Shown: positions 1 to 22,758 of the stretch, piece after piece
Numbering within the stretch: the first letter of the stretch is position 1
How the letters are laid out: the number at the start of each line of letters is the position of its first letter
NCBI GenBank assembly: GCA_016935525.1
Contig: JAFGQU010000021.1
Coordinates: 15,028 to 79,027 of the forward strand
Length of the DNA stretch: 64,000 nucleotides
Direction of reading: 5' to 3'
Origin: Candidatus Omnitrophota bacterium
GTDB taxonomy: Bacteria; Omnitrophota; Gorgyraeia; Duberdicusellales; 4484-171
Notes under the pieces: model-generated
What the model saw: only the letters and a program-made list of their open reading frames with translations
Databases searched by the model: none
What the model was told of the DNA's origin: nothing
Translations under genes and position numbers: made by a program

Positions 1-56
1 TTACCGTCTTACCCGTACCGCCTTTGCCGCTGATGACGACGATCTGTTTCACACTC
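1..56 (-). CDS. MinD/ParA-superfamily P-loop ATPase, N-terminal fragment (gene continues beyond the window start)
   Basis: Reverse complement of 1..56 reads MSVKQIVVISGKGGTGKT (Walker A). The ATG overlaps the stop of the next gene by 4 nt (ATGA). Confidence 0.5.
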
Positions 57-906
57 ATTTTTTCTTCCCATCCCTAATCATCTCAAACATTGCCTGGAAC
101 CGCTCCCGATAATGAGGCAAAACCTCTACTATCGTCATCCCGCGCGAATATGCCGCTGCGATCTCCTTTTCAAACGGTATACGCATCAATACCGCGATAT
201 TTTCCTTCCGGCAGTAATCGTCCGTTTTCCTGTCACCCAAATCGGAACGGTTGATCACCACCCCAAACGGTATGGTTAATTTTCGTAACACTTCTACCGC
301 CAAAATCAAATCATTCAGCCCGAAGGGAGTAGGTTCAGTAACTAAAATACAGAAATCGCTTCCTTTAACGGATTCGATCACCGGACAGGAAGTACCCGGA
401 GGCGCGTCGATAATGTTTACCCCGGCGGGATCGATATATTTCTTTACCGCCCTGATAAGAGGAGGCGACATCGCCTGACCGATATTCAGCTTGCCGTGGA
501 TAAACTCTAAATCCCCACCCCATGAGGTACGGCTGTTTCCTGTTTCGATAACGCCGATCTCTTTATTCACTTCTGTTATCGCTTTCTGCGGGCAAAAATA
601 AGCGCACGCGCCGCAACCATGGCACAGTTCCGAAAAAACCAGCACGTCATTTTTTAATACCGCTAACGCGTTATACACGCACACCTCTTTACAGCGGCCG
701 CACCCGTTACACCTCTCCTTATCGATCTTTGGCACCGGGATAAAAACAGGGACCTTCTCTTTTATCTCCGGCTTCAGGAAAATGTGAGCATTAGGCTCCT
801 CCACATCACAGTCCAGGATCCGGGCGTGAGGGACCGACAAAGCGAGATTAGTCGCGACGGTCGTCTTCCCTGTTCCCCCTTTGCCGCTGGCAATGGAAAT
901 AATCAT
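55..906 (-). CDS. MinD/CooC-like ATPase with inserted 2x[4Fe-4S] ferredoxin domain
   Basis: 283 aa with a GKGGTGKTT Walker A and two CxxCxxCxxxCP ferredoxin motifs (CNGCGRCKEVC, CHGCGACAYFCP). Confidence 0.8.
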   Translation of the reverse strand: MIISIASGKGGTGKTTVATNLALSVPHARILDCDVEEPNAHIFLKPEIKEKVPVFIPVPKIDKERCNGCGRCKEVCVYNALAVLKNDVLVFSELCHGCGACAYFCPQKAITEVNKEIGVIETGNSRTSWGGDLEFIHGKLNIGQAMSPPLIRAVKKYIDPAGVNIIDAPPGTSCPVIESVKGSDFCILVTEPTPFGLNDLILAVEVLRKLTIPFGVVINRSDLGDRKTDDYCRKENIAVLMRIPFEKEIAAAYSRGMTIVEVLPHYRERFQAMFEMIRDGKKK

Positions 907-925
907 AAGTATGCTTTCTGTTGAC

Positions 926-1534
926 TTATATAATCGGATGAAAAGCGATTATTAAATCCTGAAACTTAGTCGCGTATTTTTCCAACCGGAACCCTTTACC
1001 GGCCAAATACGCGGCGGTATGGTTTAAATCAAACCGGCTGGCCGGATGGCGTCTTCCTTCGCTTCGATGGATCTCATCCACCAGTTTCAACCCCTCACGG
1101 TTAAAATCACTTAAAACGACCTTCCCTTCGAACGAGGTAACGCGCGCCAGCTCATCCCCCGCCGGGAAAGGATCTTCCAGATGATGAAACATATTCACGC
1201 AAAAGACGATGTCAAACTGACGGTCCTGAAACGGCAGATGCTCGGCATCGGCTATTTGAAAATTTACTTTTTCTCCCAGGCCGTAATATTCAATATTCAA
1301 TCGGGCGAACTTCTGTTCTTCTGCGGAGATATCGACACTGGTAAAACGGTACCCTTCTTTGGCCAACGCGAGGGTAAAGTACCCTTTACCGGTGCCTACT
1401 TCCAGAATATCGCCGTATAAAGGACAAGATTTATCCAGAATAAACTCCCGTTCTCTTTCGACGTCGTACCCGAAACGCTTATACAGCTCTATCCGTTCGC
1501 GATATTTTTTATGATTTTCTACCATGTATCCCAA
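926..1534 (-). CDS. class I SAM-dependent methyltransferase (type 11)
   Basis: 202 aa with LEVGTGKGYF motif I, an acidic motif II (VDIS) and a DIVFC motif. Confidence 0.75.
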   Translation of the reverse strand: MGYMVENHKKYRERIELYKRFGYDVEREREFILDKSCPLYGDILEVGTGKGYFTLALAKEGYRFTSVDISAEEQKFARLNIEYYGLGEKVNFQIADAEHLPFQDRQFDIVFCVNMFHHLEDPFPAGDELARVTSFEGKVVLSDFNREGLKLVDEIHRSEGRRHPASRFDLNHTAAYLAGKGFRLEKYATKFQDLIIAFHPII

Positions 1535-1535
1535 A

Positions 1536-1766
1536 CTACCCCCTGGTCATCTTCGTGCCGCATTTGGGGCAACTGACCGATACGCAGGGAGTTCCCGGTT
1601 GATGGGCGACATTGGCGCCGCACGCCGGACATACACAATGGCCGCCGGGGCCTCTTCCGGAAAATCCTCCTCCCATACCGCCAGAACCATTTCCCTGCCC
1701 TTTACCGAATCCTCTCCCTGTGCCCGGCCCTTGGCCGGAGGGACCTGTACCATCGCCTCTTGGCAT
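1536..1766 (-). CDS. DUF5320-family protein (Gly/Arg-rich N-terminus, C-terminal Cys4 zinc ribbon)
   Basis: The ORF track gives 1536..1817. The likely true start is the internal ATG at 1766, preceded by AGGAGG, giving MPRGDGTGPSGQGPGTGRG..., which matches the DUF5320 N-terminal signature. C-terminus reads CPACG...CPKCG. Confidence 0.6.
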   Translation of the reverse strand: MPRGDGTGPSGQGPGTGRGFGKGQGNGSGGMGGGFSGRGPGGHCVCPACGANVAHQPGTPCVSVSCPKCGTKMTRG

Positions 1767-1860
1767 TTCGCACCTCCTGATTTTTAAAAGAAAACAATGC
1801 CGGGAACGGCCCGGCACTCTCGAATAATTTTCTCAACGAAACCTTAGTATCCCGGACAAA

Positions 1861-2232
1861 TTATTTCCCCATACCGAAATGCGAATCGACGCTGGGCCCG
1901 TCCGTTGACTGGAATTTTCCGTTTTTGTATTTTTCGATTACCTCACGCACTTTGCCGGACACGCCGGTAATGATAGAAACCCCCGCCGCGTTGAGAGTTT
2001 GATAAGCGTTCGGCCCGACATTTCCGGTCAACACGGATTTGACGCCTTTTTCGGCGATAAGCTGACCGGACTGGATACCCGCCCCGCCGCTACTGTCGAT
2101 ATTGGGATTACGTACCGCTTCGCATTCACCGGATTCGGTGTCGGCGATAATAAAATACGCGCACCGTCCGAACCGCGGGTCGACCTCGGACTGAAGGTCT
2201 TCACCCCGAGACGTAATACATATTTTGCTCAT
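1861..2232 (-). CDS. NifX/NifB-type dinitrogenase FeMo-cofactor-binding family protein (Nitro_FeMo-Co fold)
   Basis: 123 aa containing RFGRCAYFII...AEKGVKSVLTGNVGPNA, typical of the NifX/NafY/DUF-type cofactor-binding family. Confidence 0.7.
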   Translation of the reverse strand: MSKICITSRGEDLQSEVDPRFGRCAYFIIADTESGECEAVRNPNIDSSGGAGIQSGQLIAEKGVKSVLTGNVGPNAYQTLNAAGVSIITGVSGKVREVIEKYKNGKFQSTDGPSVDSHFGMGK

Positions 2233-2243
2233 ACAGAAACCTC

Positions 2244-2651
2244 CTATTCGTGTTGATGATGTTTTTCATCGGGATGATCGCATTCTGTCTTTTCCACACC
2301 GTAACCTTTTCCCGCCCCCGGCCGGCAAAGGCTCTCTCCGCCGTGAAGAGTCCCGGCCATGACTTGATCAATCACCTCATCTATGTTTCCTTCGATCCCC
2401 ATTATTGTTTCGATACCGCTTTCTTCGAACAACATCTGAGCTCTCTGTCCCATTCCTCCGGCAATAATAGCTCTTACGCCTTTCCCTTTTAAAAACATCG
2501 GCAAAAAGCCGGGGTGATGTCCCGGGTTATCGATGACCTCTTTACTCACGATCGAATCTCCCTCGACATCGACAATCGTAAACGAAGGACATCGGCCGAA
2601 ATGGGCCGATACCAGATTACCGTCAGCTGAAATCGCTATTTTCAAAACCAC
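2244..2651 (-). CDS. NifX-like FeMo-co-binding family protein with His-rich C-terminal tail
   Basis: 135 aa containing HFGRCPSFTIVD...VRAIIAGGMGQRA and a C-terminus CDHPDEKHHQHE. Confidence 0.7.
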   Translation of the reverse strand: MVLKIAISADGNLVSAHFGRCPSFTIVDVEGDSIVSKEVIDNPGHHPGFLPMFLKGKGVRAIIAGGMGQRAQMLFEESGIETIMGIEGNIDEVIDQVMAGTLHGGESLCRPGAGKGYGVEKTECDHPDEKHHQHE

Positions 2652-2783
2652 ACCTCCTTAAATCTCCCGACGAACGTTGGAAGATTGAAAAATATTATTG
2701 TGAAACAGGCGGGAATAAAAACTTCACCTTCACATCGTTTTTCGATTGTATCCGGCCGCTCTATTCCCGCCTATCTCTTCCCG

Positions 2784-3155
2784 TTACTCATTGTCTTGCG
2801 ACGCCGCATTCGCTTCCAAATCTTTTATACGCTGATTGATCGCGGCTATCTCTTCCTGCATCGCCCGAGCTTCCTCTTTCAACGCTTTTGCTTCATCCTG
2901 CGCGGATACAGTCGATCTCGCATACGGATTGGCGTAAGGAACGCCATACCCGTAGGGAGACGCCCAGCGCCAGCCGAACCCGCGGCCGAATCCCCGGCCC
3001 CAGCCCCGGCCCCTACCGAATCCACGGCCATATCCGCCGCCGCGGCCGCCGACCGGATTCATGGAGCCCGGCACCGGAAACCCTGCGCAATAACCCGCGC
3101 CGCGTCCGGTCATCGGACCTGCTCCTAAAGGACCTGTTCTATCACCACCTGGCAT
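2784..3155 (-). CDS. DUF5320-family protein (RGG/FGRG-repeat region plus C-terminal coiled coil)
   Basis: The ORF track gives 2784..3164. An RBS AGGAGG lies 8 nt upstream of the ATG at 3155, giving MPGGDRTGPLGAGPMTGRGAGYC.... An RG/RGF-repeat block is followed by a coiled-coil tail. Confidence 0.6.
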   Translation of the reverse strand: MPGGDRTGPLGAGPMTGRGAGYCAGFPVPGSMNPVGGRGGGYGRGFGRGRGWGRGFGRGFGWRWASPYGYGVPYANPYARSTVSAQDEAKALKEEARAMQEEIAAINQRIKDLEANAASQDNE

Positions 3156-3214
3156 CTTACTCACCTCCTTTCTTATTGTAAATGGGACTCATTCTCATTA
3201 ATAAATAAAAAAAA

Positions 3215-3691
3215 TTATTCCCTGTCTTTACACTGTTCGCATAGCCCGTAAAACTGTAAGATATGTTTCATGATTTTAAAATTATATTTCTTCGCAAGAC
3301 CTTTTTCCGTTCTCTTTAACAACTCCACTTCATCGTCGATAAAATCGGTATAATTAATGACCCTCTGGCAACGAAGGCATACCAGGTGATGGTGATGGTC
3401 TTCTTTATCCTCTTTACTCCTTTGCAACTCATATCTGGCCCGTCCGTCGCCAAAATCAAACTTATGGACCATCTGCAACTGGACCAGCAGCTCTAAGGTA
3501 CGGTATACGGTAGACATCCCGCTGGAAGGATGGATTTTATGGACTCTATGGTATATCTCTTCGGCGCTTAAATGTTCCCCGGTCCTGCTTAACACCGCCA
3601 AAATAGCCTGGCGGGACAGGGTAAGCCGGTAACCATACCCTTTAAATCGGCCCTGACACCAGCCCGCTCTTTTTGTAAAGTTATCCGGCAT
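3215..3691 (-). CDS. Fur-family metalloregulator (Fur/Zur/PerR type)
   Basis: 158 aa with an HTH, an HHHH...CxxC metal site (EDHHHHLVCLRCQRV) and a C-terminal CEQC. Confidence 0.8.
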   Translation of the reverse strand: MPDNFTKRAGWCQGRFKGYGYRLTLSRQAILAVLSRTGEHLSAEEIYHRVHKIHPSSGMSTVYRTLELLVQLQMVHKFDFGDGRARYELQRSKEDKEDHHHHLVCLRCQRVINYTDFIDDEVELLKRTEKGLAKKYNFKIMKHILQFYGLCEQCKDRE

Positions 3692-3715
3692 ATGCCTCCT
3701 TATTAGGAATGATTC

Positions 3716-3778
3716 CCACTACCATTTATAGTGTACAACATTCCCGGTTTTTTGTCAAATTTATTTCTGGGGCGTTCC
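3716..3778 (-). promoter_or_regulatory. Putative sigma70 promoter of the fur-led operon with a Fur-box-like palindrome
   Basis: On the minus strand: TTGACA (3763..3768), a 17-nt spacer, TACACT (3740..3745), then the inverted repeat GGAATcATTCC (3716..3726) between the -10 and the RBS. Confidence 0.45.
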
Positions 3779-3821: not shown

Positions 3822-3985
3822 TCTGTACAGTCTACAGTCCATGGACTATCGACCATCGACTATACTCTATCGACTAATCACGCATCCCGTTTTCTCTCTA
3901 ACCGCTATCCGCTAAACGCTATTCACTATTCAACGGGATAACGGGCAAACAGGTTCACCTGACTACTGACTATCGACCAGAGGCT
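3822..3985. repeat. Heptanucleotide-periodic tandem repeat array (GTCTACA/GACTATC/NNCGCTA units)
   Basis: Direct reading shows a 7-nt period: ctgtaca gtctaca gtccatg gactatc gaccatc gactata ..., then accgcta tccgcta aacgcta, then gactact gactatc. Confidence 0.8.
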
Positions 3986-4045: not shown

Positions 4046-4243
4046 TCAAGCAGCGATTTTCCGCACTTTCCCATCTTGCCAGACAGAAATCAATCGTCCG
4101 TTTTTTTTGTGCCGTTCAACAACTTTTTTCACTGCTTTTTTTAAAGCAACCTCTGCTTTATCATGAAGGCTCATACGTTTTTTCATATTTCCACTCCAGT
4201 CTTGTTTATTATTTTCTTCAACAAAGGCATATCTTTCTTGCAT
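4046..4243 (-). CDS. Small basic hypothetical protein, possible partner of the upstream P-loop kinase
   Basis: 65-aa ORF overlapping the 3' end of the zeta-like gene. A more likely start is an internal Met (MKKRMSLHDK...). Confidence 0.25.
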   Translation of the reverse strand: MQERYAFVEENNKQDWSGNMKKRMSLHDKAEVALKKAVKKVVERHKKNGRLISVWQDGKVRKIAA

Positions 4244-4809
4244 ATTTTGTTGTGTTCCATTTTTGCGATCACTTTTGGTTTAATCCCCGAATTATCAAAT
4301 AAGATCCAGGAATCTGACATTTTAATATACACGTGAAAAAAGTTATGGATACTTCTACCGAAACGTCTTTTTATATCGACAACAGGGACATCATGGCCGC
4401 CTTCCGCGACCCTATTTTTAATACGGGCCACAGCTAATTGGGGATCAGGGAGCCATAAAAAGAAAAGATGCAATTGATATCCTTCTTCTTTTAAATTCTG
4501 AAAATGCCTTAGGTAAGTTTTACCGGCAAGCGTCGTCTCAAAACCGAAATCGATCTTCCTCTTCACCATCTCTTTAATCTGGTCCAAAACAAGTTTCCCG
4601 GCTTTGATTGCTACTTGTTGGGGCGAAAATGGAGATAATCCTTGGGCAATAAGATCAGCATTCACAAAATGAGGGCAATGAGCATAATTTGGCAGAAATT
4701 CCTTAGCAAACGTCGTCTTCCCCGACCCGTTGGGGCCGGCTATTATGTACACATTATTTTCCCTTTTCACGGAAATATTATATCGTGTGAGAGGATATTG
4801 GCAAATCAA
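4183..4809 (-). CDS. Zeta-toxin/AAA_33-like P-loop kinase
   Basis: 208 aa with Walker A GPNGSGKTTF, of size and type seen in the zeta-toxin/UNAG-kinase family. Confidence 0.5.
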   Translation of the reverse strand: MICQYPLTRYNISVKRENNVYIIAGPNGSGKTTFAKEFLPNYAHCPHFVNADLIAQGLSPFSPQQVAIKAGKLVLDQIKEMVKRKIDFGFETTLAGKTYLRHFQNLKEEGYQLHLFFLWLPDPQLAVARIKNRVAEGGHDVPVVDIKRRFGRSIHNFFHVYIKMSDSWILFDNSGIKPKVIAKMEHNKICKKDMPLLKKIINKTGVEI

Positions 4810-4841
4810 ATGAACCAGATGACAACCTACGTATCCACCAT

Positions 4842-4949
4842 CTACAGTCTCTGGTCTACGGTCTATGGTCTACGGTCTACGGTCTATGGTCTACGGTCTA
4901 TGGTCTATTGACTACTGACTATCGACCATCAACTATCGACTATCGACGT
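4842..4949. repeat. Heptanucleotide tandem repeat array (YGGTCTA)n followed by (GACTATC)n
   Basis: Reads tctacag tctctgg tctacgg tctatgg tctacgg tctacgg tctatgg ... then gactact gactatc gaccatc aactatc gactatc. Confidence 0.85.
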
Positions 4950-4954
4950 ACCCA

Positions 4955-5923
4955 TCATATCGCTTCGATCGTTGACGGCGGTTTAGTGGCGATATTGTAC
5001 GTGACGCTCACTACCCCGGGAACAGCTTTCAGTATCCGTTGCGCCAATGTTTCCAGCGTCTCATACGGCAGACGGGTAGGGTGCGCCTGACGGGCATCGA
5101 CACTATCCCAACAGCGTATCTCTATCTGCAACCCAAAATCACGTTTATTATCACGCATACCTGTCACGCGGTCCTGATGCAAAATCGCCATATACTGAAA
5201 CGCGCCGCATCCGGCAAGTTCTTCTTCCACGATCACGGTTGCCGCGCGTACAGTAGCGATTCTCTCCCGCGTCGCTTCACCGATCACCCGGGCCGAAAGC
5301 GCCGGGCCGGGAAACGGCATCCGATGATATATCTCTTCCGGTAACCCTACCCCTTGCGCTACTTTTCTCACTCCATCTTTACGTAACTGGACCAGCGGTT
5401 CGATGATCTTGTACCCGAACGCGGCTTGAGGGTCGATCCCCAACTGTTCAAACACGTTATGTTGCCGTTTGATCCCGGCGATAGTTTCATCGATATCGGT
5501 AAGGATAGTCCCCTGCAAAAGATATTGTGCGCCGCTTGACTTTACCAGACGGCCGAATACTTTTTTATAAAAAGTCTGGGTGATCGCTTCTCTTTTTTCT
5601 TCCGGATCGGTGACTCCTTTTAACGCTGAAAAAAACTCATCCTGAGCGTCGATGATCTCTACATTCACCCCCATCTTTTTGAAAATCGCGACAATCCGTT
5701 CCGGTTCACCTTCCCGCATGATCCCGTTATCGATAAAATACGTGTGAAGCCTGTCGCCCAACGCCCGGTGCCCCAGCATCGTCACTGCCGAAGAATCTAC
5801 TCCTCCCGACAACGCGTTAATTGCCAGGCCGTCGCCTACGGTCCGGGAGATTTCCTTTACTTTTTCTTCTACGAACTGTACTACGTTCAGATCCTTTACG
5901 GTGATCTCTTTCGTCATGGTCAT
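4955..5923 (-). CDS. guaA: GMP synthase ATP-pyrophosphatase subunit (GuaA subunit-B-like; no glutamine amidotransferase domain)
   Basis: 322 aa with the PP-loop SGGVDSS. The C-terminal dimerisation region ends KPPSTIEAI, and the internal stretch LPEEIYHRMPFPGP is typical of GMP synthase. Confidence 0.8.
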   Translation of the reverse strand: MTMTKEITVKDLNVVQFVEEKVKEISRTVGDGLAINALSGGVDSSAVTMLGHRALGDRLHTYFIDNGIMREGEPERIVAIFKKMGVNVEIIDAQDEFFSALKGVTDPEEKREAITQTFYKKVFGRLVKSSGAQYLLQGTILTDIDETIAGIKRQHNVFEQLGIDPQAAFGYKIIEPLVQLRKDGVRKVAQGVGLPEEIYHRMPFPGPALSARVIGEATRERIATVRAATVIVEEELAGCGAFQYMAILHQDRVTGMRDNKRDFGLQIEIRCWDSVDARQAHPTRLPYETLETLAQRILKAVPGVVSVTYNIATKPPSTIEAI

Positions 5924-5938
5924 GGGTTTCCTCCTTTG

Positions 5939-8900
5939 TTATGAACCAACGGAAGTGGCGATCTCCCCTTTGCTTAACCATTTATGGTATTCCTGTAACG
6001 ATACCGGCTCGCTGTCGCCGCGCATACTCGCTTCGATCCCGTCTACCGTAGCGCGGGCCGCGGCCATAGTCGTGATATAAGGGACTTTATGCTGGATAGC
6101 CATCATCCGGATATAACTGTCGTCATATTTCCCTTCCCTGCCGATAGGCGTATTGATGACCAGATTGATCTGTTTATTTTTAATGACATCGACGATATTG
6201 GGCCGGCCTTCGTGGATCTTTTTGATCGGCTCGGTCTCCACACCGTGTTCCTGCAAAAACCGGCAGGTATTTTCGGTCGCGTACACATGGAATCCCAGCT
6301 CTTTTAACCGCCACGCGACCGGAAGCAATTCCGGTTTATCTTTATCGCTTACCGTCACCAGCACATTCCCTTCCCGGGGAAGCCGGGTCCCGGCCGCTTC
6401 CTGCGCTTTATAAAATGCCACGCCAAAACTCTTATCAATCCCCATCACCTCGCCGGTCGCGCGCATTTCCGGCCCGAGCACCGGATCGACCTCAGGGAAC
6501 ATGGAGAACGGAAATACCGCCTCTTTCACTCCGACAAAAGGGATCTTTTTCTCGATCAATTCGGGAAAACTTTTCAGTTTTTTGCCCATCATCAGTAACG
6601 TCGCGATCCGGGCGATAGGGATTCCCGTCACTTTCGATACATAAGGCACCGTACGCGACGCCCGCGGGTTCGCTTCCAGAACATACACTTTCCCTTCACA
6701 GATCGCGAACTGGATGTTCATCAATCCGACGACCTTCAGTTCCCGGGCGATCTTGATCGCGTATTCTTTTATTGTTTCCAGCTGTTGCGGCGTGATGTTC
6801 CGCGGAGGGACCCGGCAGGCCGAATCGCCCGAATGGATCCCGGCATGTTCGATATGTTCCATCACTGCCGCCAGATAGATATCTTCACCGTCGGAAAGCG
6901 CGTCGACTTCGGCTTCGATCGCGTTTTCTAAAAACCGGTCGACCAGCATCGGATGTTCCGGACTCAACTCGATCGCCTCTTCGACATATTTTTTCAGCAT
7001 CGATTCGTCAAAAATGATCTCCATCCCTCTTCCGCCGAGCACGAACGAAGGACGCACCATTAACGGATACCCGATCCGGCCGGCGATCTGGACCGCTTCT
7101 TTTAACGACCGGGCCGTACCGCCTTCGGTCTGGACGATCCCCATCTTTTCCATTTTAAGGCGAAACAATTGCCGGTCTTCGGCAAACGCGATGCTTTCCG
7201 GGCTCGTTCCCAAAATGTATACCCCGTTTTTTTCCAACTCCTGGGCGATATTCAAAGGAGTCTGCCCGCCGAACTGGACGATGACCCCTTGCGGTTTTTC
7301 TTTTTCATAAATCGCCAGCACATCTTCTACGGTAAGCGGTTCGAAATAGAGTTTATCGGACGTATCGTAATCGGTCGAAACCGTCTCGGGGTTACAGTTG
7401 ACCATGATCGTTTCATACCCTTCATCGCGTAACGCGAACGCCGCGTGAACACAGGTATAATCGAATTCGATCCCCTGGCCGATACGGTTCGGCCCGCCGC
7501 CGAGGATCATGATCTTTTTATGGTCCGATACCGGGACCTGGTCTTCTCCCGGGCTATACGTAGAATAATAGTATGCCGCGTTTTCCACTCCGCTGACCGG
7601 CACGGCCTCATATCGGGCGTTCCCCATCAACTTCACCCGCCGGCTGCGCACCTGCGATTCTTTGACTTTATACAATCGGGCGAGATATGTATCGCCGACC
7701 CCCCATTGTTTCGCTTTGACCAGGAGTTCATCCGGCAATTTGTTCCAGGGATATTTCAGGAATTCCTCTTCAAAATCGACCAGCTCTTTCATCTGGCCGA
7801 TAAACCATCGGCCGATATACGTGAGCTGATACAGTTCTTCTATCGTCATCCCTTTCCGTAACGCTTCATACATCAAAAATACCCGTTCGCTGGAAGGAAA
7901 CGTCAACCGGCTACGCAATTCATCAAGGCTCAATGACGCGAAACTCCTGGCAAACCCTAACCCGTACCGGGAGATCTCCAGCGACCGGATCGCTTTTTGC
8001 AGCCCTTCTTTAAACGTTTTACCGATACTCATCACCTCACCCACCGCTTTCATCTGAGTACCGAGGATATCTTTCGCCTGAGGAAATTTTTCAAACGCCC
8101 ACCGGGCGAATTTCACTACCACATATTCCCCGCTCGGCGAGTATTTCTCCAGCGTCCCCTCTTTCCAATACGGGATCTCATCCATAGTAAGCCCCGCGGC
8201 AAGTTTGGTAGAAATCCGGGCGATCGGGAATCCCGTCGCCTTTGACGCGAGCGCCGACGACCGTGACGTACGCGGATTGATCTCGATGACGACTAACCGG
8301 TCGTCTACGAGATTATGGGCGAACTGGATGTTCGTACCGCCGACCACACCGATCGCGTCCACGATCTTATAAGAATACTCCTGCATCAATTTCTGCAGTT
8401 TCTCCGGGACCGTCAACATCGGCGCGACACAAAAACTGTCGCCGGTATGGACGCCCATCGCATCGACATTCTCGATAAAACATACGGTGATCTTCTGATT
8501 TTTCTCGTCACGTACGACTTCCAGTTCAAGTTCTTCCCACCCCAGCACCGACTCTTCGATCAATACCTGATGGATAAGGCTTGCCGCGAGTCCCCGCGTC
8601 ACGATCACGGCAAGTTCTTCACGATTATACGCGATCCCCCCTCCGGTCCCGCCCATGGTATATGCCGGCCGGATCACGACCGGATATTTCAATTGTTCGG
8701 CAACCGTTTCAGCCTCTTCGACCGAATGGGCTATTTCCGATTGCGGTAACGCGATCCCCAGTGTACGCATCGTCTCTTTAAACGCGAGACGGTCTTCACC
8801 CCGTTCGATCGCGTCAGCCTGGACCCCGATGATCTTCACCTTATATTTTTCCAACACCCCGTGCTTATATAATGTCGAAGAAAGGTTAAGGCCGGTCTGT

Positions 8901-9486: not shown

Positions 9487-9637
9487 AGTCTACAGTCTCT
9501 GGTCTATGGTCTCTGGTCTCTGGTCTCTGGTCTACGGTCTCTGGTCTATGGTCTACGGTCTATGGTCTCTTGACTACTGACTATCGACTATCGACTATGG
9601 ACTATCGACTATGGACTATCAACCATCGACTATTTAA
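9487..9637. repeat. Heptanucleotide tandem repeat array (TGGTCTM)n then (GACTATS)n; the longest copy in the window
   Basis: About 12 units gtctacag/tctctgg/tctatgg... followed by about 9 units gactact/gactatc/gactatg/gactatc.... Confidence 0.9.
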
Positions 9638-11052
9638 TATTCGCCGTCAATCGCCGTCTCTATGACCGAGACCGGTTCTTCGACGACTTTTATGGTACGC
9701 CAATGCCCGCTCCGGTACCGGAAATACACAAATACCGAGAAAAAAAGAAAGATCGCGACCAATACGCTCCATCCGGTTTCCAGCGGTAACCGGTATACTT
9801 TTAACATGACAAACTGCGCCGGGACAAGTATCCAATGTAACGTAACCGAAAGGCACATCGCCCAGAACGTATCCCCGGCACCGCGTAACGCGCCGGTAAA
9901 CACGACAAACATCGATTCGACCAGGACGTACACGGACGCTAACCGGATCATGAATATCGCCGTTGACCGCGCGGCAAGGAATACCGGATCGGCCCCGGCC
10001 GGTTGGAACACGTCGACCAACAATCCGGGGAACCCCACAAAAAAGATAAACACGACCGCAGAATAAACACATCCCATTTTAAATCCCGACATCGCCGCGC
10101 GATGCGCGGTATCCGGTGATGACGCGCCCATATATCTTCCGACCAGACTGGTCGTACCGATCTCCACTCCCAACAACGGCACGAACGAGACCATATCCCA
10201 ATTGAACATTATCGTCGACGCGGTCGCGGCGATCAGACTTACCGAATGGAATATCATGACCATCACATCGAACGCGACCAGGTTAAGGAACATCTCTACC
10301 CCCGCCGGATACCCGAACCGCACCAGCGTTCCCATCACGTTCCGGTCGAACCGAAACGATCCGGTGATCCCGTATTCTTTACGGTTTGAAGAATTAAAAT
10401 ACGTACCGACCAGCACTATACATCCGCAGAACAGACCGATCACTGTACCGTAGGCCGCGCCCCTGATCCCTAACGCGGGGACCCCCAGTTTCCCGAAAAT
10501 CAGGATATAGTTGGCCACAATATTGACGACCATCGCGACGAACGAAGAGATCATCACGATTTTCGTTTTCCCGATACCGGAAAAAAACGAACTGAACACA
10601 TGCCGCAGGAGCCCGACGATCACCGCGGCAACCAGAATATCGAAATATATTTTCTGATGGATAAGTTGTACCGGATTGATCCCTACCATATCGAACAATC
10701 TATATGCCAGCGGCCGGCACCACACGATCACCGGCCAGGCGATCACGGCAATGATCAACGATTGCGTGATCGTAACGGCGCATTTCTGTTTATACCCGGC
10801 ACCGAGATATTGCGCGACAAGCGCGGTCGCGTATCCGGTCAATCCGACAAAAAAGGTCATCATCATAAACGCGGTAAGCCCTCCGGCCATCGCCGCGCTC
10901 ATCACTTCCGGCCCTAACCGGGACAAAAAGATCCGGTCAGTAAACGTCATGACCGTATAACAGGCGTGCGAGACGACCATCGGTAACGATATCGCGACCA
11001 TCTCGCGGATACTGCCCTGGGCCGGTAGTACGTGTGACTTAAGGTGTGCCAT
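9634..11052 (-). CDS. MATE-family multidrug/oligosaccharidyl-lipid efflux transporter
   Basis: 472 aa with 12 predicted TMs and a MATE-like N-terminus (ISLPMVVSHACYTVMTFTDRIFLSRLG). Confidence 0.8.
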   Translation of the reverse strand: MAHLKSHVLPAQGSIREMVAISLPMVVSHACYTVMTFTDRIFLSRLGPEVMSAAMAGGLTAFMMMTFFVGLTGYATALVAQYLGAGYKQKCAVTITQSLIIAVIAWPVIVWCRPLAYRLFDMVGINPVQLIHQKIYFDILVAAVIVGLLRHVFSSFFSGIGKTKIVMISSFVAMVVNIVANYILIFGKLGVPALGIRGAAYGTVIGLFCGCIVLVGTYFNSSNRKEYGITGSFRFDRNVMGTLVRFGYPAGVEMFLNLVAFDVMVMIFHSVSLIAATASTIMFNWDMVSFVPLLGVEIGTTSLVGRYMGASSPDTAHRAAMSGFKMGCVYSAVVFIFFVGFPGLLVDVFQPAGADPVFLAARSTAIFMIRLASVYVLVESMFVVFTGALRGAGDTFWAMCLSVTLHWILVPAQFVMLKVYRLPLETGWSVLVAIFLFFSVFVYFRYRSGHWRTIKVVEEPVSVIETAIDGEY

Positions 11053-11093: not shown

Positions 11094-11200
11094 TTACAGT
11101 CTCTCTCTGGTCTCTGGTCTCTGGTCCCTTGACTATGGACTATGGACTACTGACCACCGACCATCGACTACTGACCATCGTCTATTGACTATCAACTAAC
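11094..11200. repeat. Heptanucleotide tandem repeat array
   Basis: Reads ctctctggtctctggtctctggtcccttgactatggactatggactactgaccaccgaccatcgactactgaccatcg. Confidence 0.85.
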
Positions 11201-11745: not shown

Positions 11746-12262
11746 TCACAAACGTTTTTCCGTTCCAGGTATATATTTCCCAAGCCGGTTCATCGGCATA
11801 CGACCAACCTTCTTCATCAAACTTCGGCACACCGATTTTTATCGTAGGCGGATTTGATTGAAAATCTGTCTCTATACCGCATCCACTTCCGGTCTCAAAT
11901 ATTTTATACAATTCATCGTCTTTATAACCGTAAACAGCAAGATTCGTATAATGCATTCCGCTTTGCGACCAAGCCACAATTTGATGGGCAGCATCTTTAT
12001 TAAGACTTACAAACTCGACTTTTCCCATATGTTCGGCCATAGAAAATGTGTGTGCTTTTTCCGTATCGGGATCATATACGGTAACGATCCCCTCTTTCGC
12101 ATACGGCGGCGCATCGGTGAACGTACCGTACACCTGATGGACGGTAATGGTTTCAGTTCCTCCGTCACCGTCCAGATCGACGAAATGGGTCTCTAATTCC
12201 GCCGCCGCGGCCGCGCCGCACATAACCCCACACATCAAAATGAGTACAAATAATGATTTCAT
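11738..12262 (-). CDS. Secreted hypothetical protein with DLDGDG (FG-GAP/VCBS-like) motif
   Basis: 174 aa with a signal peptide; overlaps the downstream gene by 8 nt, suggesting an operon. Confidence 0.4.
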   Translation of the reverse strand: MKSLFVLILMCGVMCGAAAAAELETHFVDLDGDGGTETITVHQVYGTFTDAPPYAKEGIVTVYDPDTEKAHTFSMAEHMGKVEFVSLNKDAAHQIVAWSQSGMHYTNLAVYGYKDDELYKIFETGSGCGIETDFQSNPPTIKIGVPKFDEEGWSYADEPAWEIYTWNGKTFVNE

Positions 12263-12275
12263 AAGATAATCGTTA

Positions 12276-12325
12276 GTATATAGTCCATAGACCAGAGACT
12301 GTAGACCATGGACTATTCACCATAT
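12276..12325. repeat. Short heptamer repeat block (mixed orientation: TAGTCCA/TAGACCA/TGGACTA)
   Basis: Reads atagtccatagaccagagactgtagaccatggactat, with 8-bp inverted ends. Confidence 0.7.
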
Positions 12326-12726
12326 ATCGCCGCGATGATCATCCCTTCCAGAGGAGTCTGTATCAACCCCATGATCGTCCAGTACAGAACAACTGTAGGA
12401 GCGACCGTCATAAACGAGTACGTAGCGAACATTCCCGGCAGGATCCCGACCGCCCATACGCATAATCCAAACACGAACCCTTTGGTCAGTTTATTTTTCC
12501 CGGGTAGTCCTTTACGGATCAACGCGTACACCAAAGCTAATATAATACTTATTACCAGACTGCCGATAAAGAACCCGGCGCCCGGCGCGGAATCCATCGG
12601 TTTCCACACATTAGTCGGTTCGAGTTTATAGACCCAGTTAAAAATCCCGGCACAGGTCACCATCCCTGCTATCGCATTAAAAATAGTTACCGCTACGCCA
12701 GCCAAAAGCAGTTTTCCTATCTTCAT
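12313..12726 (-). CDS. Small integral membrane protein (hypothetical)
   Basis: 137 aa with 4 predicted TM segments. Confidence 0.4.
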   Translation of the reverse strand: MKIGKLLLAGVAVTIFNAIAGMVTCAGIFNWVYKLEPTNVWKPMDSAPGAGFFIGSLVISIILALVYALIRKGLPGKNKLTKGFVFGLCVWAVGILPGMFATYSFMTVAPTVVLYWTIMGLIQTPLEGMIIAAIYGE

Positions 12727-12842
12727 ATCCTCCTCCTTTTTTACGTTGAAATGATTATAACTCAGCTATAGATATTTGCAATAAGGGGGTAGTTCGAATG
12801 ATAAAAATGGCTCAGTCCGCCCGTTCGCCCGTTGCCCCGTTT

Positions 12843-12990
12843 TATAAATAAATCCTAAGACCGAAGCACTAAATTCTAAACAAGCTCTAAGCTCTAATTT
12901 CAAAACAGATAAATATTTTTTCATTAGAATTTGGAATTTAGGATTTGTTTTGGATTTAGAATTTAGGGCTTAGAATTTTTAGACTGGTGA
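12843..12990. repeat. Composite inverted repeat built from about 11-nt direct repeats (CTAAATTCTAA / TTAGAATTTAG)
   Basis: Left arm aaatcctaaga...ctaaattctaaacaagctctaagctctaattt. Right arm ttagaatttggaatttaggattt...ggatttagaatttagggcttagaattt. Centre near 12925. Confidence 0.6.
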
Positions 12991-13038
12991 TCTCCCCCCG
13001 CCACCCTGCACCCGGCACCCGAAACTGCTAAGGAACGG

Positions 13039-13440
13039 TTAGCAGGTAGCGGTGAGAGATTTATAGTTTCTATACATCCTTTCGACATTCTTATTATTCA
13101 CGTGATCGTGATGTCTGAACCCTCCGCCGAAATTTTGAGGAATATGCATAAGTTCATGGATGATCACTTTATCCTGTTCTTCGCCGGGAAGCTTATCAAA
13201 CCGTTCAGAAATAAATTCAATAGCATAATACGCCGGACACCCGATAGTTTTCTGCATGATCTTTGCTAATCCGTGACATCGCGCGATCGCGCGCCGTGAA
13301 GTGGACCCCGAACTTCTGAAACACTTGAATAGTTCCGGATGAATGTGAGGGAACAATGTCTTACAGATGTCTTCGGCTTTCTCCTGGAGATCACCCGCGA
13401 ATTCATAACCGATAGTTTTTCTTCTTTTCTTTCGGCGCAT
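13039..13440 (-). CDS. HExxH-motif zinc metallopeptidase-like protein (SprT/DUF45-like)
   Basis: 133 aa with HELMHI followed by a His-rich segment (GGGFRHHDH). Confidence 0.4.
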   Translation of the reverse strand: MRRKKRRKTIGYEFAGDLQEKAEDICKTLFPHIHPELFKCFRSSGSTSRRAIARCHGLAKIMQKTIGCPAYYAIEFISERFDKLPGEEQDKVIIHELMHIPQNFGGGFRHHDHVNNKNVERMYRNYKSLTATC

Positions 13441-13503
13441 GTCTCTTATTGTATCACGGCCGGTTTTTACCGAAAAGTTCGAATATGAAGACTGGCGAAA
13501 AAG

Positions 13504-13536
13504 TCGCTGGTCGATGGTCTATGGTCGTTAGTCAAA
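13504..13536. repeat. Short heptamer repeat remnant (TGGTCGA TGGTCTA TGGTCGT)
   Basis: Reads gctggtcgatggtctatggtcgttagtc at the left edge of the AT-rich island. Confidence 0.5.
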
Positions 13537-13680
13537 AACCAGGCAGGTGTCGGAGCTCACCCCGAATCGAGCTTCGCTCTGGTTCGGGGTCGGTCTTATT
13601 CTGCCTTCGGCAGAATCTCCTAAATACCCACCCATCTAGGGTAGCCCTTCAAGCGCACTTCGCGCGCTTTCCCTCATCTT

Positions 13681-14193
13681 CTATTCGAATTTCCATTTCT
13701 CTTGCCTAAAAAAATCAAACCGATTAAAATACCGGATCTTATAAAAACTGCAGATATTAGGGATTCGATAGGTATTCGTTTTAAAACTCTCATCTGTAAC
13801 CACAGCACAAGAAAACTTTGATTTTCCATTAGTATACTCTCTATTCTCTCTAATCGCCAAAGCAATAACCCAAGGGTCCGCATAAGGAGGTTCTTTATCA
13901 GGGCTAGCAAAGCCAGGATGATCTTTCAAAATATCTATCATAATATCTTGTTGGATGTCGTCTACATCAATAAACATATGTTTATTATCCTTAACCCAAT
14001 CAACCAAACCATCTTCATATCTAACTAATTCATCATGTACTTCTAGTGGAGATATTAGCCGTTCCTCTTGGATCAATTTCTCAATGTTAGGCCAAATTTT
14101 AGGATAAATGTCGGCGGGATGTTGTCGATAAATATTAATCAACGCACTGCTATCAATACAATATTTAATTTTTTCTTCCTCATTGCTACTCAT
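13681..14193 (-). CDS. DUF4411-family (PIN-like) protein
   Basis: 170 aa with an N-terminal YCIDSSALIN and the conserved acidic residues typical of the PIN-like DUF4411 fold. Its start overlaps the stop of the upstream ImmA/IrrE gene by 4 nt. Confidence 0.6.
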   Translation of the reverse strand: MSSNEEEKIKYCIDSSALINIYRQHPADIYPKIWPNIEKLIQEERLISPLEVHDELVRYEDGLVDWVKDNKHMFIDVDDIQQDIMIDILKDHPGFASPDKEPPYADPWVIALAIRENREYTNGKSKFSCAVVTDESFKTNTYRIPNICSFYKIRYFNRFDFFRQEKWKFE

Positions 14194-15320
14194 ACCATCG
14201 CCAACATTCCTACATCATGAAAATATTTAGTTTTTATTCCTAAATAATTAGACATATCAGCAGCAGTAATGAACCCTTTATTACCGGCCTCAAATACCAT
14301 AGAAACATAACGCTTGCCTTTCTCCGAAACACAGCGACCTGCGACAGTACTTCGTCCAAACGCTTTATATGGTTTTTCTTGTCTTTTCATCTCTTCGTAT
14401 AATTGCTGATACTTTCTGAAAGAAATATAATTCAATACTTGGAGACGTCTTAAGAAAACATATTTGCTAACTTTAAATTTTCTGGCAATAGATTTTATAG
14501 TTGGGATATCAAATATTTCATTCTTAAAACTGATCACATTTGTTTTTGGTACTAAAAATGCACCGGAAAAATGATTACTGAAAATTTCTCCGCTCTCTGA
14601 GTGTTGGTCTTCTTTATATTCTGGCAAACACATACCTTCTCTACCAATAAGTATGTGTGCATATTCATGAAATAATGTAAATATTTTTGCATTAATAGCA
14701 TCTTTGGAATTTATGACTATTGCTGGCAACCCTTTCCCATAAAAAGTAAATCCTCGAATTTCATTAACTGGTAAACTAAGTTGAAAAACTAATATATTCT
14801 GACTTTCTACCCATTTTCGCCAAATTTGAAAGGCTTCAAATGAATCACGCCAGTTAAATTGTTCTTCAATCTTTATTCCACAAGTCTGCCTAATCTGCTC
14901 AGCCACTATTTCAGGATTTTCAGAAAGCGAATGCGCTTTAAAATCCGGCCCTTTTACATTCAATTCCATAGCTAATTCTGAAGCCCTAGACTGATACTGT
15001 CGAGCCCTACGTATTAATATTAAGCTTTTGGAAGATATTGGCAGACGTACTTCATTAGGCAAGGTACGAAAATCTTTTAGCAAGACTTTTGTCTTAGGTG
15101 GTTTTGGCAAGAAAAAAGCTGTTAAAGGACGTTTGTAATATGTCGAGAGTTTTCTTAGTTTTGCAATAGTTATATCTACATCTCCCGATTCCCAAGTTTC
15201 GAGCAACTCAGGTTTTACTTTCAATTTTCCAGATATTTCCTCGACACTAAAACCTGCTGTATCGCGAGCCCATTTTAAAGTTGCCGGAGTAATTTTTGCT
15301 ATAATACTCTTATGTCTCAT
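14190..15320 (-). CDS. XRE-type HTH fused to an ImmA/IrrE-family (COG2856) zinc metallopeptidase
   Basis: 376 aa with an N-terminal HTH (TLKWARDTAGFSVEEISGKL...) and the metallopeptidase motif HEYAHILIG. Confidence 0.7.
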   Translation of the reverse strand: MRHKSIIAKITPATLKWARDTAGFSVEEISGKLKVKPELLETWESGDVDITIAKLRKLSTYYKRPLTAFFLPKPPKTKVLLKDFRTLPNEVRLPISSKSLILIRRARQYQSRASELAMELNVKGPDFKAHSLSENPEIVAEQIRQTCGIKIEEQFNWRDSFEAFQIWRKWVESQNILVFQLSLPVNEIRGFTFYGKGLPAIVINSKDAINAKIFTLFHEYAHILIGREGMCLPEYKEDQHSESGEIFSNHFSGAFLVPKTNVISFKNEIFDIPTIKSIARKFKVSKYVFLRRLQVLNYISFRKYQQLYEEMKRQEKPYKAFGRSTVAGRCVSEKGKRYVSMVFEAGNKGFITAADMSNYLGIKTKYFHDVGMLAMV

Positions 15321-15325
15321 ATTTT

Positions 15326-16435
15326 CTAACTAAAGAATTCCCCCTGAAACGCCTCCTGCATTAAAGAATTAAAAAGATTATTTAATTCTTTTTCTGACTC
15401 TTTTTGTTTTTGCTTCAAACTTTCAACTTTTTGAACAAGAGTGGCGAATTTCTTCTGTTGGGGCAAGGGGGGAAGAATTACCTTCAACTTTTCTAATGGT
15501 TTTTGTGTTATTTTTGGCTGCCCAGAAATATCTGCATATCGGTTTAATTGATGGAACCACAATAAATAAAACAAAAATTGTAAGTCAATGTCTTTCTTGA
15601 ACTGCTTTATGTAAATAGCATTATCCGAAACCCAACATTTACCTCTTGTGAGATGAACACAACCACAATAGACACCCACTCGTCCAATAACAATCGTCGG
15701 GAATTCGACTAAATAATCATTAAAATAACCCATAATCCCATTGCCCCCATATGAAGGGTATGGGTATGAATTATCGAGATTTTTCGAAGGGTTAAATTTC
15801 CCACTAGATAAAATAAATAAGTCCTTTCCAAAGGCTATGCCCCACCCTTTTGTATTCTTCACCGGATCGCCGAACATTTCCAAAAATGCTGATTTCAAAA
15901 ATTCATCAGTCAATTTGTTTATGTGGGCTCTCTTTTCAATTGTAGATTCAGCCTTAGCAAGAATTGCCGATGTCTTTATTTTTATCGGCTCCGAAACACT
16001 TGGCACTTTAATTTCTTCAATATCTGACAATCGTATAGATGGGTACGCTTTATCCCGTATAAGCTGACTTGGGCGGAATCGCCTGAACCAATATTTTAGA
16101 AACTCGCTATCAATTTCTTTTTTAGGTATTATTGTCGCAAGGTGGCTGACTACATAACAAGAATTTTGCAATACATAAACTCTGTCTTTTGTCGCTGACA
16201 TGCCACTTTTAGCAAATAAAATTGTTCCTTCAGGAAAAAGTCTTAATTGAAATTTTTTTGCTACATCATCATTAATCTTTTCAAGCGAATTTTCGTCTCC
16301 GCCAGACAATAAAAATTCTAAACTTCCTGCCCTAACAAAAGGGTGTCCTACCTTGCCAAAATACTGCTGACCTTGAGGAGCACCTTGCCCAGCTGAGACT
16401 TCAGCAATAGTTTTTAAATATGTTGTTTGCTTCAT
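15326..16435 (-). CDS. hsdS: Type I restriction-modification specificity subunit
   Basis: 369 aa with the HsdS-typical TRD plus conserved-helix architecture. It overlaps hsdM by 4 nt. Confidence 0.75.
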   Translation of the reverse strand: MKQTTYLKTIAEVSAGQGAPQGQQYFGKVGHPFVRAGSLEFLLSGGDENSLEKINDDVAKKFQLRLFPEGTILFAKSGMSATKDRVYVLQNSCYVVSHLATIIPKKEIDSEFLKYWFRRFRPSQLIRDKAYPSIRLSDIEEIKVPSVSEPIKIKTSAILAKAESTIEKRAHINKLTDEFLKSAFLEMFGDPVKNTKGWGIAFGKDLFILSSGKFNPSKNLDNSYPYPSYGGNGIMGYFNDYLVEFPTIVIGRVGVYCGCVHLTRGKCWVSDNAIYIKQFKKDIDLQFLFYLLWFHQLNRYADISGQPKITQKPLEKLKVILPPLPQQKKFATLVQKVESLKQKQKESEKELNNLFNSLMQEAFQGEFFS

Positions 16436-17943: not shown

Positions 17944-17957
17944 TTCATCTCCTGTTA

Positions 17958-18073
17958 AATAGGGTAATATTAATTTTATTTTACCCTATTTATATAACAT
18001 ATTACCCTATTTCTGTCAATAGGGTAATTATTGTCAAATATTACCCTATTTATTCATATCATTACCCCATTTT
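17958..18073. promoter_or_regulatory. Array of six copies of the decamer TTACCCTATT (4 direct, 2 inverted) upstream of hsdM
   Basis: The copies are aaatagggtaat, ttaccctattta, attaccctatttc, aatagggtaatta, attaccctattta and attaccccatttt, all in the AT-rich fic-hsdM spacer. Confidence 0.6.
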
Positions 18074-18114
18074 GGTAAGTTCAAAAATTGAATTTACTCA
18101 AATCGTCGTAAATA

Positions 18115-19155: not shown

Positions 19156-19165
19156 TTCGATCTCC

Positions 19166-21955: not shown

Positions 21956-21980
21956 AAAAAATAAGCCTCCAATAATATTT

Positions 21981-22706: not shown

Positions 22707-22733
22707 ATCTAACTATTCTGCTCCTTTTACCCC

Positions 22734-22758
22734 AAAAAATCAACCCCCAAAACTCCCC
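22734..22758. repeat. Direct repeat AAAATCAACCCC(C)AAAAC, left copy, flanking the RAYT element
   Basis: Matches 23756..23776 (ggaaaatcaaccccaaaaccc). Confidence 0.5.

Follow-up and report, generated by a model that had tools for sequence, protein, structure and literature searches.

A Fur-headed operon of DUF5320, NifX-like and MinD-ferredoxin genes recurs across phyla and may hold and transfer iron-sulfur species

We analyzed a 64,000-nucleotide stretch of DNA from an uncultured anaerobe, a Candidatus Omnitrophota bacterium (contig JAFGQU010000021.1, positions 15,028 to 79,027), here called the window, which opens with a string of eight genes headed by a gene encoding a Fur-family regulator. 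Comparison with related loci showed that the order fur, DUF5320, NifX-like, MinD-ferredoxin is conserved across about nine phyla and that it is accompanied by conserved Fur boxes ahead of fur and ahead of DUF5320. With a probability that we put at roughly 0.55, this is an iron-regulated, autoregulated operon of the kind known from orp (the orange-protein complex) and from IssA, and its products would hold and transfer Fe-S species.

Gene content and conservation of the operon

Positions 1-3778 carry eight co-oriented genes, all on the minus strand, and a Pfam profile search bore out the families that a preliminary description, made from the sequence alone, had named for them. The first gene, fur (3691..3215; PF01475, 104.7 bits), encodes a protein of 158 residues with a 20-residue N-terminal extension. 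It is followed by a gene for a DUF5320 protein of 123 residues (3155..2784; PF17253, 106.5 bits, E value of 1.7e-30) and by two genes for NifX-like proteins with the Nitro_FeMo-Co domain (IPR003731), here NifX1 (2645..2244; PF02579, 83.6 bits, 1.2e-23) and NifX2 (2232..1861; PF02579, 89.9 bits, 1.4e-25). Next come a 76-residue protein combining a DUF5320-type N-terminal motif with a six-cysteine ribbon (1766..1536), a class I S-adenosylmethionine (SAM)-dependent methyltransferase (1525..926; PF08241, 3.4e-23), and a MinD/CbiA-type P-loop ATPase with an inserted 2x[4Fe-4S] ferredoxin domain (906..55; PF01656, PF10609, and Fer4 families). The last gene (58..1) is the 5' end, with a Walker A motif, of a second MinD-ferredoxin ATPase. 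Spacing between the genes is short, from a 4-nucleotide overlap up to about 135 nucleotides.

Two MinD/CooC-like ATPases with inserted 2x[4Fe-4S] domains had been announced for this string. The first is present in full. Only 19 codons of the second (MSVKQIVVISGKGGTGKTV) lie inside the window, its start at position 58 forming an ATGA overlap with the first ATPase gene, and the gene continues past the window edge. On an identical 8.7-kb contig (L001), it encodes a 292-residue MinD-ferredoxin protein and is followed by a DUF169 gene (PF02596). None of the operon proteins reached the equivalog cut-off of an NCBIfam model.

To place the operon among its relatives, we collected five loci of the closest Fur homologues, 80 loci from species-representative genomes recovered by a subfamily alignment search, and three DUF5320-anchored loci, and classified the genes in all of them by phmmer against the window's proteins. 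Twenty loci (L001 to L020) carry a Fur homologue scoring at least 149 bits, at about 48% identity or more; ordinary Fur loci, scoring below 130 bits (n = 67), served for comparison. The twenty come from Omnitrophota, Nitrospirota, Atribacterota, WOR-3, Planctomycetales, Clostridia, Marinimicrobia, Aminicenantes, and Eubacteriales. DUF5320 and/or NifX-like genes lie directly 3' of fur in 18 of these 20 loci, and most of them harbor the small ribbon protein and the pair of MinD-ferredoxin ATPases further along. The two exceptions are L016, in which Fur stands alone, and L014, which meets a contig end. None of the 67 generic Fur loci has a DUF5320, NifX-like, or MinD-ferredoxin gene directly downstream of fur. 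Conversely, Fur is located directly upstream in all three DUF5320-anchored loci. A Thermodesulfobacteriota locus has the same core genes without Fur, indicating that heading by Fur is one variant of this cluster and not universal.

Orthologues of the ATPase encoded at 906..55 were found in related loci with E values from 1e-103 to 1e-155. The methyltransferase is an accessory member: Omnitrophota-type loci have it, whereas several other phyla lack it. An Omnitrophota relative with 81% identity (L002) carries, in the same gene string and after the methyltransferase, feoA, a split feoB, and cbiM (13556-16465). This locus also differs in that the MinD-ferredoxin genes are missing from the string and NifX2 is shortened to 49 residues.

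The preliminary description had taken the cluster for a Fur-headed unit and not for a nif relic, and the survey upheld this. Of the window open reading frames (ORFs) scanned against Pfam, none is a nifHDKEN, hyp/hyd, or molybdate gene, the gene order is conserved across phyla, and the nine related loci with Pfam gene calls contain no nitrogenase or hydrogenase-maturation genes.

Beyond the shared core, the loci vary. In a Nitrospirota cluster (L006), a CDF cation-efflux protein ends in a Nitro_FeMo-Co domain (12059-13300). In a metagenomic locus (L091), two separate Fur-plus-DUF5320 modules (5803-6645 and 11939-12828) flank a NifX-DUF5320 fusion and a MinD-ferredoxin pair. Behind the ATPase pair, in the downstream regions of L003, L004, L088, L089, L090, and L092, certain accessory genes recur, encoding DUF169, an ARMT1-like damage-control phosphatase, a metallo-beta-lactamase-fold protein, aspartate decarboxylase, radical-SAM enzymes, Mrp/ParA ATPases, OsmC, and a DnaJ-domain protein.

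Operators and the Fur-family regulator

A consensus scan placed a sigma70-type promoter ahead of fur (3758..3730, minus strand; TTGACA, a 17-nucleotide spacer, and TACACT, with 10 of 12 matches). Between its -10 hexamer and the ribosome-binding site of fur lies a predicted operator, O1, a Fur box of the 7-1-7 type (TGGGAATCATTCCTA; 3704..3718, minus strand). Its core palindrome, GGAATCATTCC, had been noticed before at 3716-3726; its actual position is 3706..3716. A second predicted box, O2 (TGAGAATGAGTCCCA; 3183..3197, minus strand), which had been overlooked, is located in the spacer between fur and DUF5320.

By itself, the palindrome does not exceed chance. A 5-1-5 palindrome is expected about 60 times per 64 kb, and with up to two mismatches, we counted 20 matches in the window against 30.9 expected, so significance from the window alone was rejected. 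We took O1 to be a real operator because it is conserved in relatives. In 17 related loci, the region upstream of fur follows one order, namely, TTGACA (16 of 17), a -10 element, a 7-1-7 inverted repeat, CAATAAGGAG, and the start codon, and a box stands at the position equivalent to O1 in all 17. It reads TGATAATCATTATCA in L004 and L017 and TGAAAATnATTTTCA or TGGAAACCATTTTCA in most loci. Similarly, a longer palindrome, TTAATGAAAATnATTTTCATTAA, is kept at O2 in the fur-DUF5320 spacer of 12 related loci. The claim of a Fur-box-like palindrome in the promoter was therefore right in substance, by virtue of its fixed position in relatives and not of its own statistics.

The canonical form of the box is TGAAAATCATTTTCA. 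Rodionov et al. derived the iron Fur box of delta-proteobacteria, WTGAAAATNATTTTCAW, from the upstream regions of feoAB and fur (PMC545781), and the O1/O2 consensus of most of our relatives is identical to it. As an independent probe, we searched 21 loci for the published consensus within 130 nucleotides upstream of fur, allowing up to three mismatches. A site was found in 17 of the 21, against 0.019 expected per locus from the background rate. The four misses are the three members of the window's clade, whose box is shifted, and one locus whose start codon was probably mis-called.

In that clade (L001 to L003), an A/T-to-G/C change is common to O1 and O2, and both boxes have become TGGGAATnATTCCCA. 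At O1 the clade carries TGGGAATCATTCCCA, which reads TGGGAATCATTCCyA in the window and L003 and TGGGAGTCATTACCA in L002. The same shift in both boxes suggests that they are read by a single protein and that this protein has drifted along with its sites.

The operon resembles the delta-proteobacterial iron Fur regulon in the 17-bp palindrome of its relatives, in a fur gene predicted to be autoregulated, and in the association with feoAB (PMC545781). It differs in that DUF5320, NifX-like, and MinD-ferredoxin genes are not among the described members of that regulon, in the N-terminal extension of the window regulator, and in the shifted box of the window's clade.

Several further boxes came to light. 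In L006, a third module of TTGACA, -10 element, Fur box, and CAATAAGGA (6780-6850) precedes a gene for a 283-residue NIR_SIR-plus-ferredoxin protein, which is small and sulfite reductase-like. The solitary subfamily Fur gene of L016 (Melioribacteraceae; 9922-10457) has one box before and one after it, with no downstream cluster and a convergent next gene. Elsewhere in the window, hits at 24480 and 55384 were discarded as intragenic (inside an SPFH gene and an inositol-monophosphatase-like gene, respectively), and weak sites at 12746 and 31236, ahead of genes of unknown function, were not credible. Words related to the heptamer repeats described below occur at 3830-3853 as a short palindrome upstream of the fur promoter.

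Judged by its profile matches, the regulator is a bona fide Fur-family protein belonging to a dedicated subfamily. Its PF01475 score compares with a cut-off of 23.1 bits, and the nearest curated model is that of Bacillus-type Fur (133 bits), ahead of the models of PerR (89 bits) and Zur (44 bits), although the top-scoring Fur equivalog models remain below their own cut-offs (133 versus 220 bits). It matched 23 solved Fur-family chains, the best being 9ire, a Fur (E value of 2e-27), and in its AlphaFold2 model, three helices and a beta wing are joined to an alpha/beta C-domain. Residues H40, E88, H99-H102, and H143 and the CxxC pairs C105/C108 and C151/C154, which in Fur proteins form the structural Zn site, are invariant in 32 homologues. 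The metal sensed would be Fe(II), as the iron-type operators and the conserved ligands suggest.

The subfamily is set apart by a conserved N-terminal extension, with the consensus MPxxxGxGPxWWHGRFRGCGYR, that replaces the usual first helix and often has a cysteine at position 19. In the window protein, this arm (residues 1 to 20; 3632-3691) is predicted to be unstructured (AlphaFold2 predicted local distance difference test [pLDDT] below 50). The extension resembles the start of DUF5320 proteins: MPxx[DN][GR][TS]GP opens 26 of 120 Fur subfamily members and 113 of 120 DUF5320 N termini but none of 2333 unrelated ORFs. The motif is decayed in the window's own Fur (MPDNFTKRAG). In L006, the 5' ends of fur and DUF5320 share only 19 of 33 nucleotides, indicating that the likeness is kept at the peptide level, and we rejected a recent duplication of operator, ribosome-binding site, and first codons as its source.

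Relation to known systems and genomic surroundings

The preliminary description had called this gene combination experimentally uncharacterized. This does not hold, since the same gene set is that of the Desulfovibrio orp genes, which have been studied for regulation, Fe-S binding and transfer, and a Mo-Cu cluster (PMC6345978, PMC3897727, PMC8359166). The ORP complex of D. vulgaris includes two related ATPases, Orp3 and Orp4, each with two [4Fe-4S] motifs; Orp5, a small [2Fe-2S] protein; and Orp8, the orange protein, which has a Nitro_FeMo-Co domain and carries a Mo-Cu-S cluster. Orp9, or MrpORP, combines an Mrp/NBP35 ATPase and a Di-Nase domain in one protein; each of the two domains binds Fe-S, and MrpORP passes clusters on to the Orp proteins (PMC6345978). 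In Desulfovibrio, the genes are split between two divergent operons whose activation depends on sigma54, IHF, and OrpR, a redox sensor that contains Fe-S, and the role of the complex is "still unclear" according to its authors (PMC3897727, PMC8359166).

The two NifX-like proteins of the window find their counterparts here. NifX1 aligns only to positions 265-365 of the MrpORP model NF041136 (1.9e-28; 99.8 bits against a cut-off of 450), matches the structures 1t3v, 1o13, and 2yx6, and conserves an HFGRC motif and a C-terminal C...CxH. NifX2 matches over its full length MTH1175 (1eo1; 8.5e-22) and the D. gigas orange protein (2wfb; 2.8e-19). Both are tail-less and acidic, with isoelectric points (pI) of 5.3 and 5.8. 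On these alignments, we assign NifX1 to the type of the MrpORP C-terminal domain and NifX2 to the orange-protein/MTH1175 type, which would place it with the tail-less members of the IssA clade. As far as the operon lies inside the window, it has no Mrp gene; L004, L006, L089, and L091 have Mrp/ParA genes as separate members of their clusters.

By its domains, the gene set is of the orp type (orp5-orp4-orp3, orpR, orp7-orp8-orp9), placed under a predicted Fur control instead of sigma54/OrpR. Besides the orange-protein-type IPR003731 protein and the Di-Nase domain like that of MrpORP, it shares with orp two adjacent MinD-like ATPases with two [4Fe-4S] motifs each, as in Orp3/Orp4, small Cys-rich proteins, and a restriction to anaerobes. 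The two systems differ in control, the window having a predicted Fur-family repressor and a sigma70 promoter where Desulfovibrio has the sigma54 activator OrpR and IHF; no gene for a sigma54-type enhancer-binding protein was found in any Fur-headed locus examined. Furthermore, the window genes all run in one direction as a single string where orp has two divergent operons, the Di-Nase domain is a protein of its own without the Mrp/NBP35 ATPase fusion, and the window-type operon contains DUF5320 proteins, the methyltransferase, and DUF169.

DUF5320 is a family with 7031 hits (PF17253) for which we found only unrelated passing mentions in the literature. The window protein starts with MPGGDRTGPxGxGPMTGRGAGYC and continues into a middle segment of 57 residues comprising 18 glycines, 8 cationic residues (Arg/Lys), 12 aromatic residues, 6 prolines, and no acidic residue (pI of 11.6). 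AlphaFold2 predicts residues 1-80 to be disordered (pLDDT below 50) and a helix at 85-122 (pLDDT about 90). This composition comes close to that of the tail of Pyrococcus IssA, an unstructured segment of 70 residues with 15 glycines, 7 cationic and 14 aromatic residues, and 11 prolines (pI of 10.7), which is proposed to wrap anionic thioferrate; the N-terminal part of IssA is an IPR003731 domain of the MTH1175 type, and MTH1175 itself was assigned to the IssA clade (PMC5524996). A weak compositional match links DUF5320 to sulfur-globule envelope proteins as well (PF17228; E value of 0.0011).

The small 76-residue protein follows a related plan, with an MPRGDGTGP motif, a Gly/Arg linker, and a CxCPxCG..HQxGxPC..CPKCG ribbon (PCx4CPxCG), whose Cys/His pattern is conserved in seven loci. 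It had been described as a DUF5320 protein with a zinc ribbon; the motif and the six cysteines are indeed there, but the match is to the N-terminal half of the PF17253 profile only, at 26.3 bits just below the cut-off of 27, and the zinc-ribbon matches are weak.

Gene fusions tie these proteins together. In a database search with the fusion protein of L019, 107 of the 120 best hits carry PF02579 plus PF17253, and 4 more add a ferredoxin domain; the hosts include Aminicenantes, Thermodesulfobacteriota, and Lentisphaeria. These fusions support a functional link between DUF5320 and the NifX domain. In L019, NifX2 runs on into (GMGR)n repeats and a coiled coil, while in L015, its C terminus is extended by a Gly/Arg linker and by the Cys ribbon known from the small protein; NifX1 is fused to NifX2 in both L018 and L019.

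Taken by its domains and composition, the window operon looks like an IssA-type protein split into domain and tail within an orp-type cluster. Both systems have an IPR003731 domain, in the window probably of the MTH1175 type, and a cationic, Gly- and aromatic-rich unstructured segment of matching composition. However, the tail of the window is a separate DUF5320 protein with an N-terminal motif of its own and a C-terminal coiled-coil helix, being fused only in relatives. The window host is a bacterium and not a member of the Thermococcales, its operon is predicted to be under Fur and not in the sulfur-responsive SurR network, and it is P. furiosus IssA that is known as the thioferrate storage protein. 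The nitrogenase carriers NifX, NafY, and NifB-C share the domain family (PF02579/IPR003731), but the window proteins have no nif context and are closest to the non-nif MTH1175, TM1816, and orange-protein groups.

Within the operon, a consensus scan also picked up a GC-rich terminator-like hairpin with a T-run in the spacer between NifX2 and the small gene (1796..1818, minus strand). Its folding energy is no better than that of shuffled sequence (z score of -0.68), for which reason we dropped it as an established terminator; it may act as a partial one that lowers expression of the distal genes. Upstream of fur, the window continues with a zeta-toxin-like gene, GMP-synthase-like and carB genes, and then a low-GC island. 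The zeta-toxin-like P-loop kinase (4046-4809, minus strand; PF06414, 2.9e-9) lies directly upstream of the fur promoter and overlaps a 65-residue ORF, with which it possibly forms a toxin-antitoxin pair. Arrays of 7-nucleotide tandem repeats (TCTACGG, CTATCGA, GTCTCTG, and GACTATC, in 6 to 11 copies) fill intergenic spacers at 4841-4947, 9488-9633, and 11104-11198 and are reminiscent of the short tandemly repeated repetitive (STRR) sequences of cyanobacteria. The low-GC island (about 35% GC; about 13000-23600) encodes a phage-type metallopeptidase, a helix-turn-helix and IrrE/M78 regulator, a Fic protein, RadC, an IS200-like transposase, and a complete type I restriction-modification system (HsdS, HsdM, and HsdR).

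Proposed role and its alternatives

Regulation and synteny stand on solid ground. Gene content, gene order, operators, and NifX-DUF5320 fusions recur from locus to locus; the metal sensed, the direction of regulation, and the biochemistry we infer. In the model that we favor, Fe(II)-loaded Fur, the product of the first gene, would bind the two 7-1-7 operators. O1 would cover the transcript start region of the sigma70 promoter and O2 lies just ahead of DUF5320, so that bound Fur would shut the operon off and low free Fe(II) would derepress it. The two IPR003731 proteins would hold Fe-S or metal-sulfide clusters, NifX1 through its Cys/His ligands. The two proteins with the DUF5320 motif, disordered and cationic (and aromatic-rich in the larger one), may serve as IssA-like tails in detachable form, wrapping or bridging Fe-S species that are anionic. 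The MinD-type ATPases with their 2x[4Fe-4S] domains, probably a heterodimer, would drive or gate cluster assembly or hand-over, with the methyltransferase and the DUF169 protein as accessories. The net effect would be to keep iron as protein-bound Fe-S and to supply it whenever free Fe(II) runs short, as it normally does where anoxic habitats are sulfidic.

The preliminary description had already suggested an iron-responsive system for trafficking or storage, and both its iron responsiveness and such a function appear plausible. Between the two functions, the position of the operators points to repression by metallated Fur and hence to expression at low free Fe(II), as would suit trafficking or scavenging more than storage of the classical kind. 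Methanococcus voltae grown on pyrite raises two IssA homologues together with FeoB and the Fe(II) repressor DtxR, which its authors explain by iron entering as FeS(aq), unseen by the Fe(II) sensor (PMC8516115). This response and the feoA-feoB genes in the L002 string fit expression under perceived Fe(II) limitation.

Several observations weigh against this model. IssA of P. furiosus is a storage protein made in sulfur-rich conditions, and repression by iron-loaded Fur would work the other way round. On isolation, the orange protein contained a Mo-Cu cluster, and for the Orp complex of Desulfovibrio, the link that has been drawn is to cell division and not to iron (PMC8359166). The ATPases and the small protein are likened to Orp3/4/5/7 by architecture only. 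As to regulation, the window's boxes deviate from the canonical consensus at 5 to 6 of 16 positions, no Fur box precedes feoA in L002, and no further credible box occurs in the 64-kb window, so that no wider regulon emerged. Residue 113, by alignment the fifth ligand of the regulatory site, is Asn in the window protein and its three nearest relatives, compared to Asp or Glu in most homologues. Given this exchange and the shifted boxes, metal affinity or specificity may differ in the window's clade.

One alternative is storage in the manner of IssA, in which an ample supply of iron and sulfide would lead the NifX-like proteins and DUF5320 tails to assemble thioferrate-like particles, with Fur acting in a nonclassical way, as an activator or as an apo-repressor released by iron. 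It would account for the IssA-like composition of DUF5320, for the widespread fusions that recreate the IssA architecture, for the weak match to PF17228, and for the CDF-NifX fusion and the Fur-boxed sulfite reductase-like gene of the Nitrospirota locus. Nevertheless, O1 lies 3' of the -10 hexamer and O2 just before the next ribosome-binding site, both of which are repressor positions, and the box is of the type that represses feoAB, genes that are part of the L002 string. Regulation by apo-Fur is, moreover, rare and known only from a few species. We therefore regard storage in this sense as unlikely, while taking it seriously. Rather improbable, in our estimate, is a regulator that senses peroxide or redox state like PerR, another metal, or Fe-S loading through its DUF5320-like arm. 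The conserved 20-residue extension, which opens with the DUF5320 signature in 26 of 120 members (background ORFs, 0 of 2333), the frequent Cys at position 19, and Asn113 in the window's clade would suit such a sensor, as would the precedent of the Desulfovibrio orp operons, which are under a redox-sensing Fe-S regulator (PMC8359166). Against it stand the invariance of all classical Fur ligands, the scores of the Fur models above those of PerR and Zur, an operator that is the iron Fur box and not a PerR or Zur variant, and the predicted disorder of the arm, which leaves a cluster site there unsupported.

Two other readings concern the cluster as a whole. Membership of the ATPases in the MinD/ParA superfamily raises the idea of an Orp-type device that places the septum or another cellular structure, the link to Fur being secondary, and Desulfovibrio mutants lacking orp expression are indeed morphologically defective, with MrpORP located at the pole (PMC8359166, PMC6345978). 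That role is nonetheless "still unclear" in the authors' own words, the 20 loci show no link to fts or min genes, and the conserved partners are metal-cluster binders, Feo, ferredoxins, and radical-SAM enzymes, all of which makes a division device very unlikely here. Hardly credible is the view of the cluster as a leftover or helper of nitrogenase or of some other maturation pathway for complex cofactors (Mo/W or hydrogenase). The Nitro_FeMo-Co domain common to NifX, NafY, and NifB and the Mo-Cu-S cluster bound by the orange protein in vitro (PMC6345978) would speak for it, but the corresponding genes are missing from the Pfam-scanned window ORFs and the Pfam-called related loci, and the regulator is Fur instead of NifA or ModE.

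Within the model of an iron-regulated operon that holds and transfers Fe-S species, one could go further and take DUF5320 proteins for the IssA tail in free-standing form, making up, with the tail-less IPR003731 proteins and the MinD-ferredoxin pair, a bacterial Fur-switched Fe-S buffer, in the form of a thioferrate-like or cluster-holding condensate or particle, that would be widespread in anaerobic phyla. Its regulator would read the state of the buffer in addition to free Fe(II), through the shared MPRGDGTGP motif as a docking site. We offer this extension as speculation and think it rather improbable.

The components, orp- and IssA-type clusters, and Fur regulons are already known. We found no description of the cross-phylum operon leading from Fur through DUF5320 and NifX to MinD-ferredoxin with paired operators, of the link of DUF5320 to the NifX domain and the IssA tail, of the DUF5320-like arm of the regulator, or of the clade-specific operator shift. 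These findings touch on the role of the orange-protein complex and of non-nif NifX-like proteins and on how anaerobes store and route iron when most of it is bound to sulfide. A dedicated, presumably iron-sensing regulator on such a cluster in about nine phyla provides a concrete, testable expression signal. Synteny and more than 100 fusions tie the 7000-member DUF5320 family to the NifX domain, and the family resembles the thioferrate-binding tail of IssA in sequence. The drift of operator and regulator in one clade additionally represents a natural experiment on Fur specificity. If the proposed role is true, ORP and IssA-like proteins would move from "cell division?" and "nif-like" to iron-sulfur homeostasis.

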